Positions 15,172-37,873 of a stretch of DNA of 64,000 nt are shown here, piece after piece. The notes under the pieces were generated by a model. That model worked only from the letters and a program-made list of their open reading frames with translations, made no database searches and was not told the origin of the DNA. The stretch comes from Escherichia virus TH58: sequence record MT446423.1. The stretch is one strand, 5' to 3'. Every line of letters begins with the position of its first letter. Position 1 is the first letter of the stretch. A program made the position numbers and the translations under genes.

Positions 15172-15585
15172 ATGACTCGTATCAATTTAACACTTGTTTC
15201 TGAACTGTCCGACCAACATCTTATGGCTGAGTATCGTGAATTACCACGCGTATTTGGTGCAGTCCGTAAACATGTTCAAAACGGTAAATGTGTAAAGGAT
15301 TTTAAAATCTCCCCGACATTTATCTTAGGCACAGGTCATGTAACATTCTTTTACGACAAACTCGAATTTTTACGTTTACGTCAAATCGAGCTAATCGCTG
15401 AATGCTTGAAACGTGGTTTCAAAATCAAGGACACGACTGTCCAAGATATTTCCGACATCCCTGCCGAATTTCGTAATAATTATGTCCCGACCGAAGCGTC
15501 CATTGCGATAAGTCAAGCTCGTTTAGATGAAAAAATTGCTCAACGTCCTACTTGGTACAAATACTATGGTAAATCAATTTACTAA
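15172..15585 (+). CDS. denV: Endonuclease V (pyrimidine dimer DNA glycosylase)
   Basis: [34 protein letters not shown]... matches T4 endonuclease V; 137 aa. Confidence 0.9.
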
Positions 15586-15616
15586 GGAAAAAGGTTGCGA
15601 TGGTAAAGCTTAAACA

Positions 15617-15646
15617 GTTTACGCTTAAGTATTAATATGGTATAAT
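15617..15646 (+). promoter_or_regulatory. Early promoter (GTTTAC, TATAAT)
   Basis: GTTTAC 15617-15622, 18-nt spacer, TATAAT 15641-15646. Confidence 0.55.
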
Positions 15647-15676
15647 TACTCTATCAAAACAAACAAGGAAACAAAA

Positions 15677-15979
15677 ATGAAAACATATCAAGAATTTATT
15701 ACTGAAGCGCGAGTGAGTGCAGGTAAATTAGAAGCCGCTATAAATAAAAAGGCCTATTCATTTCACGATTTGTCCGATAAAGACCGTAAGAAACTTGTAA
15801 GCCTTTATATTGACAAAGAGCGTATTCTCGCTCTTCCTGGCGCTAATGAAGGTAAACAGGCCAAGCCTTTGAATGCTGTCGAAAAGAAAATTGATAACTT
15901 TGCTTCTAAATTCGGTATGTCTATGGATGACCTTCAGCAAGCGGCTATCGAAGCAGCTAAAGTAATTAAAGGTAAATAA
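15677..15979 (+). CDS. ipII: Internal protein II-like
   Basis: Starts MKTYQEFITEA (capsid targeting sequence); 100 aa as T4 IPII; follows denV. Confidence 0.65.
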   Translation: MKTYQEFITEARVSAGKLEAAINKKAYSFHDLSDKDRKKLVSLYIDKERILALPGANEGKQAKPLNAVEKKIDNFASKFGMSMDDLQQAAIEAAKVIKGK

Positions 15980-16061
15980 CAGTTTACTTTCTCCTAGAAT
16001 TGTGATAGTATATTCATAATTACTTGGATGGGTAAAATGACTCAATGAAAAAATTTTAATG

Positions 16062-16100
16062 AAGCCACACTGGTATAAGTATTACGGCAAAAATATTTAC
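16062..16100 (+). pseudogene. Remnant of a denV-like 3' end
   Basis: Encodes KPHWYKYYGKNIY, similar to the denV C-terminus [12 protein letters not shown]; no upstream coding body. Confidence 0.3.
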
Positions 16101-16153
16101 ATTCAAATAACATGGGAACAACCTGGACCTCATGATTCTATGAGGGATTCCCG

Positions 16154-16250
16154 CCAACCTGTAATAAGGTCGAGCCCAAGTGCGGTAATGGGTAAATACA
16201 GAAATGGACAATTCATGTGCCATGGAATGGCCCAAACCTAGAGAGAACAA
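16154..16250 (+). repeat. Copy A of a roughly 100 bp intergenic direct repeat
   Basis: Blocks CCAACCTGTAATAAGGTCGAGC..TGCGGTAATGGGT and ATGTGCCAYGGAATGGCCCAAACCT shared with 16651-16750. Confidence 0.6.
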
Positions 16251-16251
16251 A

Positions 16252-16581
16252 ATGAAAACATATCAAGAGTTTATCACTGAAGTTACATTATCTGCGGAAC
16301 AGAAAGCTGCTATCGAAGAAGCTAAAAATCCCAAAGTAACATATAAAGTAAATAGTAAAGGCGTTTTTGATGACTTGGTTCAAGACCCTGAATTGAAAAA
16401 AGCTCTTTCTAAAACTAATGCGTACTTTGCTCCTAAATTTAACACAGCCGGCGTACTTATTGGATTGGATGTATTCAACTCTAAAGGTGTTCTATCTAGT
16501 GCCTTTGGTTATGCCGCTAACAAAATTACCAAAGCCGCATGGGAATCCAATACCAAACAAGCTCAAAAGCCTAGAGTATAA
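16252..16581 (+). CDS. Internal-protein-like ORF with capsid targeting sequence (ipIII position)
   Basis: Starts MKTYQEFITEV; 109 aa. Confidence 0.55.
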   Translation: MKTYQEFITEVTLSAEQKAAIEEAKNPKVTYKVNSKGVFDDLVQDPELKKALSKTNAYFAPKFNTAGVLIGLDVFNSKGVLSSAFGYAANKITKAAWESNTKQAQKPRV

Positions 16582-16650
16582 TTCTTGCCTAATAAAGGGA
16601 AACGCAACCTCTCCTTATGAACGTCGAGTCCTCTAAGTGATGTACCTTTT

Positions 16651-16750
16651 CCAACCTGTAATAAGGTCGAGCGCAATGCGGTAATGGGTTTACATAGCGA
16701 GTCGAAGGACCTAACATGTGCCACGGAATGGCCCAAACCTTAAGAGAAAT
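16651..16750 (+). repeat. Copy B of the roughly 100 bp intergenic direct repeat
   Basis: See copy A; ends immediately upstream of the ATG at 16754. Confidence 0.6.
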
Positions 16751-16753
16751 AAT

Positions 16754-17293
16754 ATGAGAACATTTTTAACTGGACCTTATCTATCCCTGATGAATGCTTT
16801 TACACACCATTCTGATGCTAGAGTAGAAGAAATTTGTAAGAACGGTTATGTCCCGCCGTTTGAAGACGTACTCAAGCAGTACTGTACACTTCGTTTAGAC
16901 GGCGGCCGACAATCAGGTAAATCAATTGCTGTGACTAACTTTGCTGCTAATTGGCTGTATGACGGTGGAACAGTTATTGTTCTTTCTAATACTTCAGCTT
17001 ATTCTAAAATTTCTGCCTGCAACATTAAAAAAGAATTTTCTCGTTATTCTAGCGATGATATTCGATTCCGTTTATTTACTGATTCTGTCCGTAGTTTTAT
17101 TGGCAATGAAGGTTCTAAATTCCGTGGATTAACGCTTTCTCGTATTCTGTATATAATTGACGAGCCTATTAAAGCTCCTGATATGGATAAGATTTACAAT
17201 GTCCATATTAAATCAGTACAGCACTGCTGCAAAAGCAAATATTGCATCGGCGGTAATGCTCGTCCTCAATTTTTTGTGATTGGAATGCAATGA
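16754..17293 (+). CDS. Small P-loop NTPase
   Basis: Walker A LDGGRQSGKS and Walker B-like ILYIIDE; 179 aa. Confidence 0.5.
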   Translation: MRTFLTGPYLSLMNAFTHHSDARVEEICKNGYVPPFEDVLKQYCTLRLDGGRQSGKSIAVTNFAANWLYDGGTVIVLSNTSAYSKISACNIKKEFSRYSSDDIRFRLFTDSVRSFIGNEGSKFRGLTLSRILYIIDEPIKAPDMDKIYNVHIKSVQHCCKSKYCIGGNARPQFFVIGMQ

Positions 17294-17598
17294 TGACAAC
17301 TATTGAAGTTTTTGAATATTGTTATAATAGCCCAGTATGCAATAAAAGGGCCCTTGTAGAAAATTACGAGATTTACCATTTTAAACCTAAACGATATCGT
17401 TTGACTAAAGGCCCGTTCGCAGGGCAGCAGGTTCTTTGTACTGCTCCTAATGAGCGGTTGATGACTAGTATTCCGCATTTCAAAATGGAATTTATTGATG
17501 GGCCATTTAAGGGATTAATCACTCAAAGTTTAATGGCGTTTAATTCCGACCCATTTTTGATTAAAGAAAAAACTTGGATAAATTTATTTTCTAATTGA
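17290..17598 (+). CDS. Hypothetical protein
   Basis: 102 aa; ATGA overlap. Confidence 0.45.
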   Translation: MMTTIEVFEYCYNSPVCNKRALVENYEIYHFKPKRYRLTKGPFAGQQVLCTAPNERLMTSIPHFKMEFIDGPFKGLITQSLMAFNSDPFLIKEKTWINLFSN

Positions 17599-17604
17599 GG
17601 TTAT

Positions 17605-17967
17605 ATGAAAGCATATCAAATTCTTGAAGGTGCACATAAAGGCACTATTTATTTTGAAGACGGTACTCAAGCCCGGATTATCGTCTCTAAGACTTTTAAA
17701 GAAGACGCTATTGTAGACCCGGAAATTTTCTACGGTTTGAATGCCCGTGAAATTGAAATTGAACATCAACCTAAAGTTAAAATTGAAGGTGGTCAACACC
17801 TGAACGTTAACGTTCTGCGTCGTGAAACTCTGGAAGATGCAGTTAAGCATCCAGAAAAATATCCGCAGCTGACCATCCGTGTATCCGGTTATGCGGTTCG
17901 CTTTAACTCTCTGACTCCAGAACAGCAGCGCGACGTTATCGCTCGTACCTTTACTGAGAGTCTATAG
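17605..17967 (+). CDS. Autonomous glycyl radical cofactor (GrcA/YfiD-like; T4 Y06I-type)
   Basis: C-terminal glycyl-radical motif [29 protein letters not shown]; 120 aa. Confidence 0.85.
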
Positions 17968-18191
17968 TGGCTAAATTGATTATAGAAGGGTCTGAAGATG
18001 TTTTAAAATGTTTTGCCGCCTGGTTTAGTTGCTCAGGCGAGCAATCATTCACTGAAGCATTTAGAATGGGTGATATTACTGGAAACTATCCGACAACTGA
18101 TATCACTGTACGTGGATATGGTATTAATGAGCCTATCCAATTGGTCGAATATGACCTTGCCACCGATGAGGAAATTCCTTATGTCGATTGA
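17967..18191 (+). CDS. Hypothetical protein
   Basis: 74 aa; overlapping start. Confidence 0.45.
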   Translation: MAKLIIEGSEDVLKCFAAWFSCSGEQSFTEAFRMGDITGNYPTTDITVRGYGINEPIQLVEYDLATDEEIPYVD

Positions 18192-18447
18192 AGATATTAA
18201 AGGTTACAAACCGCTCACCGATGACAAAATCGGCAAAGTGAACGCTATTAAAGATGCAGAAGTCCGTCTTGGATTGATGTTTGATGCTCTGATTGAAGAA
18301 GCATATATCTTGAAAGAAAATGAATCAGAGCAACAAACCAAAGAAGATATGGATGCAGTGCAGGCTCTTAAGTATGCTAAGCAACATCTAAAAGAAGCCA
18401 GTATGTGGGCATGTCGTGCAGTATTTCGACCTGAGGAAAAATACTAA
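18181..18447 (+). CDS. Hypothetical protein
   Basis: ATG 18181 after GAGGAA; in frame with track ORF 18013..18447. Confidence 0.4.
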   Translation: MSIEDIKGYKPLTDDKIGKVNAIKDAEVRLGLMFDALIEEAYILKENESEQQTKEDMDAVQALKYAKQHLKEASMWACRAVFRPEEKY

Positions 18448-18662
18448 TGGCTTCTACTATTACTGGGTTATTGGACTTTCAAGAAAAGGTCAACAAAATT
18501 TGTAGTGAATACTTAAAGTATCTTGAAGAAGACCTTGAAGATTGTAAGGAAGAAGGCGAAGAAGACTATGCTGACCAGCGTCGTCGCCAAATCGAAGAGA
18601 TGAGGCATTTCACCGATATAGTATCTAAAGAATCTTGGGCTTTAACTCCATTTTATCAATAA
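18447..18662 (+). CDS. Hypothetical acidic protein
   Basis: 71 aa; ATGA-type overlap. Confidence 0.45.
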   Translation: MASTITGLLDFQEKVNKICSEYLKYLEEDLEDCKEEGEEDYADQRRRQIEEMRHFTDIVSKESWALTPFYQ

Positions 18663-18666
18663 AGTA

Positions 18667-18695
18667 GTTTACTTCTCCTCTAGTTGTGTTACTAT
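18667..18695 (+). promoter_or_regulatory. Early promoter inside 10-bp inverted repeat CCTCTAGTTG/CAACTAGAGG
   Basis: GTTTAC 18667-18672, TACTAT 18690-18695; palindrome flanks the -10. Confidence 0.5.
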
Positions 18696-18723
18696 AGAAC
18701 TGTCAACTAGAGGAGAAATCAAA

Positions 18724-19182
18724 ATGACTATCAATTCAGACGTTTTTATCCGCCGTAATAAACTCCGTCGAATCTTTGAAACGGAGTTCCGCAAAATAAA
18801 TGCCGGTATAAAAGATGCTGCAAAGTCTCTTGGACTACCAGGCTTTCATATCAAGTATTCTCAACATCTCTTAGATCGTGCCATCCAGAGAGAAATAGAT
18901 GAGAACTACGTTTTTGAATTATTTCATAAAGTAAAAAATCATGTTAAAGAAGTTGCAGAATTTTTATCAATGCCGGCACGTCCGGATGTTGATGAAGATT
19001 TTGACGAAGGTGTCGAATATCGCCCAGGCCGTTTAGAAATAACTGATGGAAATCTTTGGTTAGGACTTACAGTTTGTCGCGAAAATCCGGCATTCAAAAT
19101 GAAGACTCTTCAATGCAGAATGGCTATTATTAACAGTAAACGATTACCAGGAAAAGCTTCTAAAGCAGTGATTAAAATCTAG
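18724..19182 (+). CDS. regB: RegB endoribonuclease
   Basis: MTINSDVFIRRNKLRR...SQHLLDRAIQREIDE...LPGKASKAVIK matches T4 RegB; 152 aa. Confidence 0.9.
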   Translation: MTINSDVFIRRNKLRRIFETEFRKINAGIKDAAKSLGLPGFHIKYSQHLLDRAIQREIDENYVFELFHKVKNHVKEVAEFLSMPARPDVDEDFDEGVEYRPGRLEITDGNLWLGLTVCRENPAFKMKTLQCRMAIINSKRLPGKASKAVIKI

Positions 19183-19190
19183 AGGTAAAC

Positions 19191-19733
19191 ATGAGAAAAG
19201 CACTACTCGCTGGTCTATTTGCTCTTTCATTATCAGCACATAGCTCCGAGCATACTTTTAGTAATGTCCAACTCGATAACTTGAATTATGCTTATCAGTT
19301 TGGGGAACAGTTTTCTAAGGACGGAAAATTTAAAACGCATGAAAATATGCATAAGAAAGGACTTGGATACATAATGGCCGCAATACTATGGCAGGAATCA
19401 TCTGCCGGTATTAATCTTAAAGATAAGAAAGGTCACCATGCGTATGGAATGTTCCAAAATTATCTACCAACAATGAGGGCAAGAATTAACCAGCTTGGTT
19501 ATAATATGTCTGATGCCCAAATTAAGAAAATGCTATCTAAGCGGTCTAATTCAGCCAGATGGGCTTATATCGAATTTTCTTATTGGTTAAATATACATAA
19601 CGGGGATATAAGAAAAGCTATATCCTCATATAATGCGGGATGGAAGACAAGTGCTGGAAGTAAATATGCTTCTGAAGTCCTAGAAAAGGCTAATTACCTT
19701 AAATCAAATAAACTACTGGAAATAAAAGAATGA
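19191..19733 (+). CDS. Secreted lytic transglycosylase-like protein (SLT domain)
   Basis: N-terminal signal peptide; SLT-like motifs WQESS, AYGMFQ, SYNAGW. Confidence 0.55.
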   Translation: MRKALLAGLFALSLSAHSSEHTFSNVQLDNLNYAYQFGEQFSKDGKFKTHENMHKKGLGYIMAAILWQESSAGINLKDKKGHHAYGMFQNYLPTMRARINQLGYNMSDAQIKKMLSKRSNSARWAYIEFSYWLNIHNGDIRKAISSYNAGWKTSAGSKYASEVLEKANYLKSNKLLEIKE

Positions 19734-33250: not shown

Positions 33251-33724
33251 ATGTTATTATCAGGCGCAAAATATAAAGAAGAAAAACAAAAATTTTATGA
33301 TGCACAGAATGGTAAGTGTCCTATTTGCCACCGTGAATTAGACCCTGATGTTCAAGGTAACCATCTTGACCACGACCACGAATTAAACGGGCCAAAAGCA
33401 GGTAGAGTTCGTGGGTTACTCTGTAATCTGTGCAACGCAGCAGAAGGTCAAATGAAGCATAAGTTCAACCGTTCCGGTCTTAAAGGACGTGATGTTGACT
33501 ACCTCGAATGGCTTGAAGCTCTTCTTGCTTATTTGAAACAAGATTATTCTGATAATAATATCCATCCTAATTTTGTTCCAGACAAAACTAAAGAGTTCTC
33601 AAGACTAGGTAAAGAGGAAATGATGGCTGAGATGCTTCAAAGAGGATTTGAATATAATGAATCTGATACCAAAACACAATTAATAGCTTCATTCAAAAAG
33701 CAGCTTAGAAAGAGTTTAAAATGA
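33251..33724 (+). CDS. 49: Endonuclease VII (Holliday junction resolvase gp49)
   Basis: CPICHREL...HLDHDHELNGPKAGRVRGLLCNLCN zinc and HNH-like motif of T4 endo VII; 157 aa. Confidence 0.9.
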   Translation: MLLSGAKYKEEKQKFYDAQNGKCPICHRELDPDVQGNHLDHDHELNGPKAGRVRGLLCNLCNAAEGQMKHKFNRSGLKGRDVDYLEWLEALLAYLKQDYSDNNIHPNFVPDKTKEFSRLGKEEMMAEMLQRGFEYNESDTKTQLIASFKKQLRKSLK

Positions 33725-34258
33725 AAATTGAAAAAGAAATTGAAGGATTAATTCATAAAACTAATAAAGATCTTTTGAACGAGAATGCTAATAAAGATTC
33801 TCGTGTTTTTCCAACTCAACGGGACCTTATGGCTGGTATTGTGTCTAAGCACATTGCTAGAAATATGGTCCCGTCTTTTATTATGAAAGCACATGAAAGC
33901 GGAATTATCCATTTCCATGATATTGATTATTCCCCTGCTCTTCCGTTTACTAATTGCTGTTTAGTAGATTTAAAAGGAATGCTTGAGAATGGATTTAAAT
34001 TAGGCAATGCTCAAATTGAAACGCCTAAATCTATTGGCGTTGCTACTGCAATTATGGCACAAATTACTGCACAAGTTGCTTCACATCAGTACGGCGGAAC
34101 GACTTTTGCTAATGTAGATAAAGTACTTTCTCCTTATGTTAAACGCACCTATGCAAAACATATTGAGGATGCAGAAAAATGGCAAATCGCTGATGCGTTG
34201 AATTATGCCCAATCTAAAACAGAAAAAGACGTATACGATGCATTCCAAGCTTATGAGT
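33721..34258 (+). CDS. nrdD: Anaerobic ribonucleotide reductase NrdD, exon 1
   Basis: Frame continues to predicted 5' splice site after T34258 (P1: exon ATGAGT pairs with intron GCTCAT 34272-34277, U-G at splice site); in-frame TAA follows in intron. Confidence 0.75.
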
Positions 34259-34469
34259 TAATTTAATTCAGGCTCATGTAAAACCGGTCTAAACGGGGAA
34301 CCTCTCTAGTAGACAATCCCGTGCTAAATGTTCTTTTGAACTAAATGCCTAACGACTAACCGTGATGAATGTAGCGGTGTAGAATAGAAGCTAATGCTAT
34401 TCGAAACGGCCGGCATCGAAAGATGAAGATATAGTCTAATCTGCATGGCGACATGCAGCAGTCATCTTG

Positions 34470-34477
34470 TATAAATA
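34470..34477 (+). promoter_or_regulatory. Late promoter TATAAATA inside the intron, upstream of the homing endonuclease ORF
   Basis: Exact TATAAATA about 30 nt before the ATG at 34507. Confidence 0.45.
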
Positions 34478-34506
34478 AGATTATCTTATGAATACGAGGT
34501 GAAACA

Positions 34507-35277
34507 ATGAAATGGATAAAAAGACGTTGTACTAAAATAAAAGATAAAGACGCATTTACATACTTAGTTAAGTTTTCTAATGGCGACATTTATATCGGTT
34601 ATAAAAAATTTAGAACAATTAAAAACAAGCCCACAAACTGGAAAACTTACACAACGTCATCTAAGTATATAAATGAACGCTTAAAAACTGATACACCTAC
34701 TAAATGGATAATTTTAAAAACATTTGATAGTTATAAAGACGCATTAAAACATGAAGAAGAGGTCATACGTAAATATTTTTATAACAAAAAATGTTTAAAT
34801 AAATCCATAGGCGGTAAAAAGTTTTATAAGCATCCGGATACTGAAGAACATATTCAAAAATTAAGAGATGCTCATAAGGGTAAAGTGTTATCCGAATCTC
34901 ATAAAAACAATATAAAATCTTCTGTAGCTGAATATTATGCTAAAAACGGAAGATCTAAGGAACATGTGCAAAATAATATCAATAGTCGAAAAAGTAAAAA
35001 ACAAGTATCGATAAAGCTTAAAAATAAAACTTTTAGAAGTTTTAAAAAAGCGGCGGAATATTTAAATTGCACTGAAAGTGAAGTCGAAACTCATCCTCTT
35101 GTTTTGAGTATTAAGACTACTATTCATAAAGTTCCTGAATATGTGGTTGTTGACGGTATTAAGTATACGTCTTATATAGAAGCAGCTAAAGCGCTAAATT
35201 TTCATCCTAGCACTATAAAAGAACGTTGCATATCTATGGACTATCCAAATTTTGTTGTTTCATATAAACGGGCATGA
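34507..35277 (+). CDS. Intron-encoded GIY-YIG homing endonuclease (I-TevII-like)
   Basis: N-terminal FTYLVKFSNGDIYIGYKK (GIY-YIG), NUMOD-like repeats, C-terminal HTH-like tail; 256 aa; GAGGTGA RBS. Confidence 0.75.
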   Translation: MKWIKRRCTKIKDKDAFTYLVKFSNGDIYIGYKKFRTIKNKPTNWKTYTTSSKYINERLKTDTPTKWIILKTFDSYKDALKHEEEVIRKYFYNKKCLNKSIGGKKFYKHPDTEEHIQKLRDAHKGKVLSESHKNNIKSSVAEYYAKNGRSKEHVQNNINSRKSKKQVSIKLKNKTFRSFKKAAEYLNCTESEVETHPLVLSIKTTIHKVPEYVVVDGIKYTSYIEAAKALNFHPSTIKERCISMDYPNFVVSYKRA

Positions 35278-35291
35278 ATTTGCGACTCATG

Positions 35292-36583
35292 CTGAATATA
35301 ATGATGAAGTAAATACACTTTTCAGCTCTAATGGACAAACGCCTTTTGTAACAATTACATTTGGAACAGGAACTGACTGGACTGAACGAATGATTCAAAA
35401 AGCAATTCTGAAAAATCGTATTAAAGGTCTTGGACGTGACGGGATAACTCCTATTTTCCCTAAACTTGTTATGTTCGTTGAAGAAGGTGTTAATCTTTAT
35501 AAAGACGACCCGAACTACGATATTAAGCAGCTTGCTCTAGAGTGTGCAAGCAAAAGAATGTATCCTGATATTATTTCGGTTAAGAATAATAAAACTATCA
35601 CCGGTTCTTCAGTTCCTGTTTCTCCAATGGGCTGCCGTAGTTTCTTGAGCGTATGGAAAGATTCGACTGGTAATGAAATTCTTGATGGACGTAATAATCT
35701 TGGCGTTGTAACACTGAATCTTCCTCGTATTGCATTAGATTCTTATATTGGAACACAATTCAATGAACAGAAATTTGTTGAGTTATTTAATGAACGAATG
35801 GATCTGTGTTTTGAAGCCTTGATGTGTAGAATTAGTTCCTTAAAAGGAGTTAAAGCGACTGTTGCTCCTATTCTTTATCAAGAAGGTGCATTTGGGGTTC
35901 GTCTTAAACCTGATGATGACATAATTGAGTTATTTAAAAACGGTAGAAGTTCGGTGTCTTTAGGATACATTGGTATTCATGAATTGAATATTCTTGTCGG
36001 ACGTGATATTGGGCAAGAAATTTTAACTAAAATGAATGCTCGTCTTAAGCAGTGGACTGAAAGAACTGGTTTTGCTTTTAGCTTGTATTCTACTCCCGCT
36101 GAAAACCTTTGTTATCGCTTCTGTAAACTTGATACCGAGAAATATGGAAGTGTAAAAGATGTTACTGATAAAGGCTGGTACACTAATAGTTTCCATGTTT
36201 CAGTAGAAGAAAATATCACTCCGTTTGAAAAGATTTCTCGCGAAGCACCATATCATTTCATTGCGACCGGCGGACACATTTCTTATGTTGAACTTCCTGA
36301 TATGAAAAATAACTTAAAAGGACTTGAGGCTGTATGGGATTATGCCGCACAACATTTAGATTATTTTGGTGTTAATATGCCAGTAGATAAATGTTTTACA
36401 TGTGGAAGTACCCATGAAATGACTCCTACCGAAAACGGATTTGTTTGTTCTATTTGTGGAGAAACTGATCCTAAAAAGATGAACACAATAAGAAGAACAT
36501 GCGGTTATCTCGGAACTCCTAGCGTTGTTCCGTGGAATTTAGGTAAAATGAAAGAAATGGTAAAACGAGTAAAACATGCATAG
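35292..36583 (+). CDS. nrdD: Anaerobic ribonucleotide reductase NrdD, exon 2
   Basis: Contains C-terminal glycyl-radical motif RRTCGYLG and Cys-rich zinc site CFTCGSTHEMTPTENGFVCSICG; spliced product about 609 aa. Confidence 0.8.
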
Positions 36584-37406
36584 GTATTATATAATTTATA
36601 AAATAACAAATATAATTAATTCAAAGGAATATATCGGTGCGCATAGCACCGATAACATAAATGACGGTTATATGGGGTCAGGAACATTGATTCGTGCCGC
36701 TTTATTAAAATATGGTAGAAAAAATTTTAATAAAGAAATTTTACATGTTTTTGATAATGAAAAACAAATGTATGATAAAGAAGCTGAACTTGTAACCGAA
36801 GAGTATTGTCTAAAAGAAAATACATATAATATTAAACCTGGTGGAAAAGGTGGAACTGCCTATGAACAGACACTTGAACATCGCCGCAAAAATAGTTTAG
36901 CAAATAAAGGTAAAAAGAGAACAGAAGAAACTAAAATAGCTATTTCACGTGCTTTAAAGAAATATAAACGTACGCCAGAGCATCAAGCAAATTTAAATAA
37001 AGCCGTAAGCATAGCTATGAAGCGAAAAGATGTTAGAAGTAAATTAGCTGGAGAGCGGTCTGAGAAAGATAAATTATCTATATCAAACGGTGTTAAAAAA
37101 TATTACAATTCTTTGAGTGAAGAAGAACGCGAACTTCATCGCAAGCGAATTATTGAAGGTAAAAAGAATTCTCCCATGTCATTGGAATCTAGACAAAAGC
37201 TTTCAAAAGCTTTAAAAGGACTTCAAGTTGGTTCAAAAAATCCAATGTATGGAAAAATTTCTCCGACTAGCAAAACCGTTTCAGTTGACGGTATTAAATA
37301 TGATTCAATTAAAAAGTGCTCAAATGCCATAAAAGTTTCTAGACATCTTATACTAAAACGCTGTAATTCTACTGATGAAGCTTGGAAAAATTGGGTATTA
37401 TTATGA
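36576..37406 (+). CDS. Free-standing GIY-YIG homing endonuclease (seg-like)
   Basis: YYIIYKITNIINSKEYIGAHS...YMGSGTLIRAALLKYGRKNF; NUMOD3-like repeats; overlaps nrdD stop and nrdG start (ATGA at both ends). Confidence 0.75.
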   Translation: MHRYYIIYKITNIINSKEYIGAHSTDNINDGYMGSGTLIRAALLKYGRKNFNKEILHVFDNEKQMYDKEAELVTEEYCLKENTYNIKPGGKGGTAYEQTLEHRRKNSLANKGKKRTEETKIAISRALKKYKRTPEHQANLNKAVSIAMKRKDVRSKLAGERSEKDKLSISNGVKKYYNSLSEEERELHRKRIIEGKKNSPMSLESRQKLSKALKGLQVGSKNPMYGKISPTSKTVSVDGIKYDSIKKCSNAIKVSRHLILKRCNSTDEAWKNWVLL

Positions 37407-37873
37407 ATTATGATAGATTTTATCCTTGCGATTTTGTGAATGGTCCTGGTTGCAGGGTTGTTCTTTTCGTTACAGGGTGTTTGCATAAATGCGAAGGGTG
37501 TTATAATAAATCAACATGGAATGCTAGAAATGGTATTCCATTCACTGGTGAAACACTAGAGCAATTAATTGAATGTTTGAATAATGATTATATAGAAGGA
37601 TTAACTATAACTGGAGGAGACCCTCTCTATCCTGATAACCGAGATGTTGTTCATTGCATCGTTCAAACAGTAAAAAATCTTTGTCCCAATAAAAGCATTT
37701 GGTTATGGACAGGATATAAGTTTGAAGATATTAAACAACTAGAAATGCTTAAATATGTTGATGTTATTATTGATGGGAAGTATGAGAAAAATCTTCCGAC
37801 CAAAAAACTGTGGCGAGGATCAGATAATCAGCGACTTTGGTCAAATACCGATGGGGTGTGGAAACATGATTAA
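37403..37873 (+). CDS. nrdG: Anaerobic ribonucleotide reductase activating protein NrdG
   Basis: Radical-SAM-like CxxxCxxC (CLHKCEGC) near the N-terminus; 156 aa. Confidence 0.85.
   Translation: MNYDRFYPCDFVNGPGCRVVLFVTGCLHKCEGCYNKSTWNARNGIPFTGETLEQLIECLNNDYIEGLTITGGDPLYPDNRDVVHCIVQTVKNLCPNKSIWLWTGYKFEDIKQLEMLKYVDVIIDGKYEKNLPTKKLWRGSDNQRLWSNTDGVWKHD

Follow-up and report, generated by a model that had tools for sequence, protein, structure and literature searches.

A host-like 3' tract in vs.6, a glycyl-radical spare-part gene of an RB69-like coliphage

Oxygen cleaves pyruvate formate-lyase (PFL) at its radical glycine, Gly734, and two spare-part proteins have been validated for the damaged enzyme, YfiD/GrcA of Escherichia coli and Y06I of phage T4 (PMC8683613). 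As summarized there from Wagner et al. (2001), the PFL activase (PFL-AE) radicalizes both YfiD and Y06I, and both bind to the cleaved enzyme and bring back its activity. The structured C-terminal half of GrcA (residues 61-127) fills the PFL active site, and the N-terminal half (residues 1-60), which is disordered, promotes binding to cleaved PFL and efficient radical installation (PMC8683613). A second precedent comes from the cyanophage genes psbA and psbD, host-like photosystem genes with intragenic recombination between host and phage (Sullivan et al. 2006, PMC1484495). Here we examine the gene for Y06I, vs.6, in a stretch of 64,000 nucleotides (nt) from Escherichia virus TH58 (MT446423.1; hereafter the window), where it occupies positions 17605-17967 on the plus strand. 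Gene, GrcA relationship and function are already known for the T4 family, and the annotation itself adds nothing new; the subject of this report is the nucleotide sequence. We consider it likely that the locus combines the known vs.6 repair protein with a 3' patch overwritten by its host.

The vs.6 gene and its host-like tract

The open reading frame (ORF) runs from ATG to TAG and encodes 120 residues, and its assignment to the phage autonomous glycyl-radical spare-part protein comes from the ORF call, Pfam, PHROG and synteny. The full length of the product matches phrog_1209 (E=9.1e-63), with residues 1-120 lying on positions 1-121 of the profile, and residues 60-101 match the Pfam Gly_radical domain (E=2e-18). 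At the DNA level, the gene is 99.2% identical to that of Mosigvirus SF and 92-93% identical to those of T4-type phages, and its relatives are annotated as vs.6 or as 'autonomous glycyl radical cofactor GrcA'. The surrounding gene order, vs.8-vs.7-vs.6-vs.5-vs.4 ... regB-vs.1, is that of ime09, T4 and RB69. From these matches and the shared gene order, the source of the window is therefore an RB69-like T-even coliphage (Mosigvirus), and the ORF is its vs.6/Y06I.

An earlier note, made from the sequence alone, had proposed nucleotide alignment to host grcA for measuring identity and mapping a recombination breakpoint, and the alignment bears the proposal out: in a three-way alignment, 178 of the last 185 columns are identical between the window and E. 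coli grcA, against 87 of 199 columns upstream (~44%), so that the identity is high where low identity would have spoken against a host origin. The maximum chi-square breakpoint falls between ORF nt 178 and 179, that is, window positions 17782/17783 (chi2 = 123.5). From there the host-derived tract, as delimited by the alignment with E. coli grcA, extends over 175 nt (ORF nt 179-353, window 17783-17957, plus strand) and encodes the structured glycyl-radical domain, residues 60-118. It is identical to E. coli grcA at 172 of its 175 positions, with an exact match covering 70 nt (17783-17852). Each of the three remaining positions, 17853, 17895 and 17919, has a synonymous change (in P83, A97 and P105, respectively). 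The T4-like phage ime09 matches the E. coli tract exactly over all 175 nt. On the right, the tract is bordered by a phage-specific 3' end (17958-17967, plus strand), which reads G AGT CTA TAG against A AGC CTG TAA in E. coli and differs at 4 of 10 positions; clade-specific differences among the phages resume there. Every complete E. coli genome in the set (5,426 of 5,426) holds the tract at 95-99% identity to the window.

The donor was sought in a host panel consisting of grcA from 80 species plus Klebsiella pneumoniae, with one sequence per species and a coverage that excludes Aeromonas, Vibrio and other hosts, and differences were counted over a 168-nt core of the tract. K. pneumoniae grcA was absent from the genome-contig scan and was taken from a PLSDB record in which a chromosome is wrongly filed as a plasmid, and K. 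aerogenes grcA was excluded as the PLSDB record is frameshifted there. Several 4-5 Mb 'plasmid' records in that database (CP125156.1, NZ_OL790696.1 and others) are misfiled whole chromosomes, which is a caveat for plasmid statistics. Among the phages, ime09, T4, RB69 and the window differ from E. coli grcA by 0, 1, 2 and 3 of the 168 nt, respectively; among the hosts, another Escherichia species differs by 2, Citrobacter amalonaticus by 13, K. pneumoniae by 20 and Salmonella by 29. The window tract differs by 22-44 of 168 nt from phages outside this E. coli-type group. We bootstrapped by directly resampling the statement of which host is nearest, because tree supports after re-rooting looked unreliable and were not used, and the nearest host of the window tract was Escherichia in 100% of replicates. 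Over the last 61 codons, the synonymous divergence (dS) from E. coli is 0.14 for the window and 0.04-0.05 for T4 and ime09, compared to 0.39 between E. coli and Citrobacter and 0.98 between E. coli and Salmonella. The gene for PFL itself, pflB, was ruled out as donor of the tract, with 34 differences over the 168 nt against 3 for grcA.

The two genes also differ in composition. GC content at third codon positions (GC3) in the phage gene is 0.25 in the N-terminal half and 0.41 in the tract, and that of host grcA is uniform (0.39/0.43). The host genes are similar along their whole length, the N-terminal halves of E. coli and K. pneumoniae grcA being 84% identical. Since the phage gene is a mosaic in composition and the host gene is uniform and similar throughout, the transfer is read as running from host to phage, and by these nucleotide comparisons both this direction and the recency of the transfer are shown. 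We propose that the conversion took place after Escherichia had split from its sister genera.

Recurrence of the host match among phage genera

Karamvirus, Slopekvirus, Pseudotevenvirus and the T5-like phages have kept the C-terminal protein sequence almost unaltered, yet their tracts differ from other phages, and from all hosts of the panel, by 24 or more of 168 nt, and dS has reached or is close to saturation. Constraint on the protein is therefore not enough to impose identity of nucleotides, and the ancestral vs.6 was a complete phage gene that had a diverged 3' half of its own. On this comparative evidence, the event is a replacement (gene conversion) of a 3' patch in a pre-existing phage homologue, not the making of a fresh chimera. 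The relatively recent chimeric capture suggested in the earlier note thus holds for the 3' part, which is recent and host-derived, but not for the gene, which is an old, conserved vs.6 with one patch replaced.

The Klebsiella-infecting genus Jiaodavirus presents the same arrangement with a different host. Phages phiA85 and KPV15 carry the phage-type N-terminal half, with 72-74% nt identity to the window and T4 and ~50% to hosts. Their tracts differ from K. pneumoniae grcA by 9 nt (phiA85) and 4 nt (KPV15), versus 21 and 22 nt from E. coli, and share with K. pneumoniae its diagnostic synonymous sites and two amino-acid states (LLDAVEH). K. pneumoniae was the nearest host of the KPV15 tract in 99.9% of bootstraps. 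The phage database contains 638 records with 95% or more identity to the E. coli tract and 80 with 95-99% identity to that of K. pneumoniae, and both types of match have the same edges (query nt 3-175). A further 8 records, 90-95% identical to E. coli, may be partial conversions. Across 80 IMG/VR loci, the host-matched genes were only of the T4/RB69 type and the KPV15 type. Read together, these nucleotide data indicate that conversion from host to phage has occurred at least twice.

We propose that vs.6 is an old resident of T4-like phages whose 3' 175 nt would have been overwritten by host grcA through homologous recombination (gene conversion) between phage DNA and fragments of the host chromosome during infection, a mechanism that we infer. 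Conversion would have been limited to the only part in which the phage gene resembles that of the host closely enough, and an independent second conversion would have brought Klebsiella grcA into the Jiaodaviruses. The conversion of the tract may have no selective effect, or it may bring a benefit in the form of host-specific residues.

Several phages carry tracts or genes that stand apart. The vs.6 of KPV15 (322-683 in the RefSeq record, 362 nt) has a 1-nt deletion that frameshifts the N-terminal half and is annotated as two short coding sequences, with the Klebsiella-type tract intact despite the frameshift; either the sequence is in error there or the gene is a pseudogene. Slopekvirus KP1 has the Klebsiella-like signature LLDAVEH and the related Klebsiella phage phi1_146010 the E. 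coli-like LEDAVKH, with both tracts at least 24 nt from any sampled host, a split that suggests older conversions or convergent adaptation. The tract of 'Salmonella phage PSE-D1' is 97.1% identical to K. pneumoniae grcA, the Yersinia phages fPS-90 and PYps5T have an E. coli-type tract (98.9% to E. coli grcA), and Hafnia phage IsaacDaniel, compared only with the Salmonella tract, ranks among E. coli-type coliphages in that search (the records behind these odd-host tracts are ON550260.1, LR215723.1, MT828552.1 and MW749000.1). The tract may report the evolutionary host of a phage better than its isolation host does.

The Vs.6 protein and its probable function

The tract-encoded part of Vs.6 is that of GrcA at the protein level as well. 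Residues 61-120 (EGGQHLNV...TFTESL), among them the 29 letters quoted in the earlier note, are 100% identical to E. coli GrcA 68-127 and residue 60 is I in place of V, so that the essentially identical C-terminal block reported in the earlier note is real and comprises 60-61 residues instead of about 65. The predicted glycyl-radical site is Gly95 in the motif RVSGYAV (GGT codon, 17887-17889, plus strand), which is equivalent to GrcA Gly102 and PflB Gly734 in alignments to GrcA and to PflB residues 696-759. With Vs.6 as query, GrcA in the PDB (6OWR) was matched at E=2e-42 and PflB residues 696-759 at E=3e-26. A single-sequence AlphaFold2 model of Vs.6 was uninformative (mean predicted local distance difference test score 41); the C-terminal domain is identical to that of the solved structure 6OWR. 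The structural hallmarks of GrcA are present, namely a stand-alone protein of ~14 kDa that is essentially a glycyl-radical domain, the RVSG95YAV motif and a PflB-like C-terminal domain.

The N-terminal half (codons 1-59 plus 1 nt, 17605-17782, plus strand) is AT-rich and of a phage type conserved in T4-like genera. In nucleotide sequence, the N-terminal half of the window gene is 72-89% identical to other phage N-terminal halves and ~50% identical to those of hosts. The protein pattern MKAYQILEG.hkGTIY.EdG..aR.iVSK... is common to Tequatrovirus, Mosigvirus, Jiaodavirus, Karamvirus, Slopekvirus and Pseudotevenvirus, and T5-like phages and Aeromonas phage 65 have more distant versions of vs.6. 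The earlier note had called this half unrelated to GrcA, which does not hold: the BLASTP alignment with E. coli GrcA covers Vs.6 residues 22-120 (74% identity), and hhalign on the N-terminal halves only, with 11 phage sequences compared to 67 host sequences as profiles, aligned Vs.6 residues 22-59 with GrcA 28-66 (probability 80.6%, E=1.3e-5, 37% identity). Only the first ~21 residues have no detectable similarity to GrcA. Judging from this weak homology, the half appears to be a diverged GrcA N-terminal half common to many phage genera. Between the window and T4, nonsynonymous divergence (dN) is 0.06 and dS is 0.45 in this half, and the ratio (~0.13) denotes purifying selection. Any phage-specific behaviour would reside here, and this is the part to study for a functional difference between the phage version and GrcA.

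Because of its orthology to T4 Y06I and the complete identity of the functional domain, we infer that Vs.6 of the window repairs PFL as its T4 orthologue does; in strict terms it belongs to the phage family Vs.6 and would work like GrcA, an equivalence established for the T4 orthologue only. The product, a glycyl-radical domain of 13-14 kDa that stands alone, would receive its radical on Gly95 from the host activase PflA and would then dock into host PFL whose C-terminal glycyl-radical segment had been cut by oxygen. Docking would restore the conversion of pyruvate to acetyl-CoA and formate, and fermentative energy metabolism would be kept going in the infected cell under micro-oxic or anaerobic conditions. 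The repair role assigned in the earlier note agrees with what Wagner et al. (2001), in the account of PMC8683613, reported for the protein of T4.

Vs.6 could instead serve the phage anaerobic ribonucleotide reductase NrdD or another glycyl-radical enzyme, an idea that goes back to Nolan et al. (2006), who suggested, on the strength of its match to Gly_radical, that the protein acts in the metabolism of nucleotides (PMC1524935). The window does hold nrdD and nrdG, and in Aeromonas phage 65, vs.6 (423-785) lies directly between nrdG and nrdC, a tighter link to the anaerobic reductase genes than in coliphages. However, Vs.6 has no significant similarity to the NrdD of the window (E=1.6) and the nucleotide-metabolism role is without sequence support, the C-terminal domain is that of GrcA and resembles PflB 696-759, the tract was copied from grcA, and reconstitution of cleaved PFL with PFL-AE has been reported for T4 Y06I (PMC8683613). 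We therefore give this reading a slim chance. The earlier note had joined the three genes in an adaptation to anaerobic growth; both nrd genes are present, but they lie 16-20 kb downstream of vs.6, and the link is a shared anaerobic lifestyle, thematic only, and not a functional module.

Vs.6 might also act as a decoy or regulator, in which the host-identical domain occupies PflA or PFL and redirects pyruvate flux, with the N-terminal half altering the outcome. Such a role would fit an N-terminal half that is clearly unlike that of the host and under purifying selection, and the GrcA N-terminal half does determine how the protein binds to cleaved PFL and how efficiently the radical is installed (PMC8683613). 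The published reconstitution with T4 Y06I points to repair and not to inhibition, and no data here favour inhibition, so that we hold this role to be very unlikely and retain repair of host PFL as the probable function of Vs.6.

Age of the exchange, gene neighbourhood and known systems

The two coliphage clades allow the age of the tract to be examined from within the phages. RB69-like and T4-like phages differ at 20 of 178 nt in the N-terminal half, versus 97-98% identity in the tract; between the window and T4, the counts are 20 differences in the 178 nt and 4 in the tract, and the flanking genes are 55-85% identical. Synonymous differences between Mosigvirus and Tequatrovirus amount to 12.5 over 37 sites in the N-terminal half vs 3 over 42 in the tract (Fisher p=0.004), the same test gives p=0.0004 for the pair RB69-T4, and the comparison of the window with Karamvirus, used as a control, shows no such synonymous drop in the tract. 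In 12 sequences from the two clades, fixed/polymorphic sites number 11/19 in the N-terminal half vs 0/13 in the tract (p=0.019); all variants in the tract depart from the E. coli state at low frequency, and a difference that is fixed and specific to the clade returns at nt 360, within the phage-specific 3' end. Divergence thus collapses in the tract, and the tract was therefore homogenized after the split between Mosigvirus and Tequatrovirus. RB69 has been reported not to recombine with T4 (PMC6024577), which favours separate conversions by the host over spread from phage to phage, although proof is beyond these data. In the RB69-like and T4-like lineages, the tract was probably converted separately or re-homogenized.

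Close relatives of the window invert the pattern. The window and SF have 0 differences in the 178 nt of the N-terminal half and 3 in the tract, and the window and RB69 have 2 and 5, respectively; SF and RB69 have the E. coli state at sites 291 and 315, and only the window has departed from it there. Such an inversion could reflect short secondary conversion patches or chance.

A single ancient chimeric capture with no later exchange, after which purifying selection and codon preference kept the tract host-like, would account for the equal tract edges in E. coli and Klebsiella phages, and the protein domain is indeed extremely conserved in all lineages. It does not explain why the synonymous states are host-specific, of E. 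coli type in coliphages and of K. pneumoniae type in Jiaodavirus, why synonymous sites are saturated in other genera whose protein is the same, or why divergence between genera collapses in the tract and polymorphism does not, and we regard it as highly improbable. That the E. coli and Klebsiella grcA 3' halves came from T4-like phages, or that a third party was the donor, is barely credible: near-identity alone gives no direction, but grcA is uniform in composition, with similar N-terminal halves in the two hosts, stands in a conserved ung-grcA chromosomal context with tract distances that scale across Enterobacterales, and the mosaic gene is the phage's, in both GC3 and the N-terminal identity to hosts.

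Repeated replacement of the patch in an old phage gene remains our preferred explanation, and several points weigh against it or against the equivalence with GrcA. The tract has only ~42 synonymous sites, and small counts lie behind the comparison of Mosigvirus and Tequatrovirus (p = 0.0004-0.02). In that comparison, independent host conversions are inseparable from one conversion that spread between phage genera. For phiA85, K. pneumoniae was the nearest host in only 73% of bootstraps. The grcA tracts of Salmonella and Enterobacter had no phage match at 95% identity or above in the phage database, and host tracking is thus not universal. Finally, Vs.6 scores 159.1 bits with the NCBIfam GrcA equivalog TIGR04365, below the curated cut-off of 170 bits, and its match is confined to profile positions 23-126, whereas E. 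coli GrcA reaches 233.9 bits. The shortfall is due to the divergent N-terminus.

The vs.6 gene is closely packed with its neighbours, which around its start is typical of the T4 vs cluster. Upstream lies vs.7 (17290-17598), which matches phrog_2049, as expected for vs.7, and a GAGG four bases 5' of the vs.6 start (17597-17600, plus strand), read from the sequence as Shine-Dalgarno-like and with a role that is presumptive, overlaps its TGA stop (17596-17598). Downstream, the TAG of vs.6 shares one base with the GTG start of vs.5 (17967-18191, phrog_1986), and GAGAG at the 3' end of vs.6 may be a putative ribosome-binding site for vs.5. A promoter and terminator scan of 15500-19300 returned 13 promoter-like sites vs 11.4 in shuffled sequence, which is no excess, and we therefore make no regulatory claim. 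Further downstream on the plus strand, nrdD (33721-36583; NRDD profile, RF00028) encodes the anaerobic ribonucleotide reductase and is split by a group I intron: the exon-1 ORF (33721-34266) matches NRDD profile positions 1-141, the intron matches RF00028 at 34223-34458 (72 bits) and contains an ORF for a GIY-YIG/NUMOD1 homing endonuclease (34507-35277), and exon 2 (~35252-36583) matches NRDD 145-562 plus Gly_radical. This intron resembles the T4 nrdD (sunY) intron with I-TevII. The radical-SAM (S-adenosylmethionine) activase of NrdD is encoded by nrdG (37382-37873, plus strand; Fer4_12 at 1.4e-48, Radical_SAM). Between nrdD and nrdG, and overlapping the ends of both, a 276-residue ORF (36576-37406) has a NUMOD3 motif and a weak match to the I-TevI DNA-binding domain and is probably a free-standing homing endonuclease.

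We lean towards the view that the 3' 175 nt of vs.6 are repeatedly overwritten by grcA of the enterobacterial genus in which the phage lineage replicates, which amounts to a short 'host stamp' with sharp boundaries; the Salmonella-labelled PSE-D1 with its Klebsiella-type tract and the Yersinia and Hafnia phages with E. coli-type tracts would be examples. In the literature searched, no description of the vs.6/grcA nucleotide mosaic or of its host tracking was found, and an earlier mention may exist outside it. If true, the host stamp keeps the spare part identical to that of the host and records the host history of the phage, and it offers an experimentally tractable case of ongoing gene conversion from host to phage in the classical T4/E. 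coli system. RB69 DNA carries a hydroxymethylcytosine (hmC)-type modification, arabinosyl-hmC. Here, a lytic phage with modified DNA and almost no nucleotide similarity to its host nevertheless has 175 nt that are 98-100% identical to the chromosome. The tract is thus a natural and quantifiable substrate for measuring host-to-phage recombination in T4 and a possible sequence marker of the recent host genus of a T-even phage.

Among described systems, the closest is T4 Vs.6/Y06I (PHROG 1209), an orthologue with the same length of 120 residues, the same position between vs.7 and vs.5, the phage-type N-terminal half and the E. coli-type 3' tract. The window differs from it in having the RB69/Mosigvirus allele, whose tract has three private synonymous changes from E. 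coli, whereas that of T4 has one nonsynonymous change (R73H) and that of ime09 has none. E. coli GrcA (YfiD, 6OWR) has the same C-terminal domain and RVSGYAV glycine, with PflA and oxygen-cleaved PflB as presumed partners, but the phage protein is 7 residues shorter and is encoded in an early-gene cluster of a lytic phage and not beside ung. The C-terminal segment of PflB (~696-759) has the same fold element and radical motif and is the piece that the spare part replaces; the phage tract departs from it at 34 of 168 nt and in several residues (for example, MNREMLLDAMEN in one against a 12-residue counterpart in the other). As in cyanophage psbA, an auxiliary metabolic gene of T4-like phages has swapped segments with the host copy and carries host-matched patches, and sequence signs of psbA-type exchange are found in vs.6: a bounded segment nearer to the host, a break in composition, and separate lineages that each match their own host. 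Unlike psbA, vs.6 exchanges one short, bounded patch of 175 nt, because the rest has diverged beyond recombination, and its hosts are enterobacteria; the vs.6 tract is in this sense an enterobacterial parallel to cyanophage psbA.

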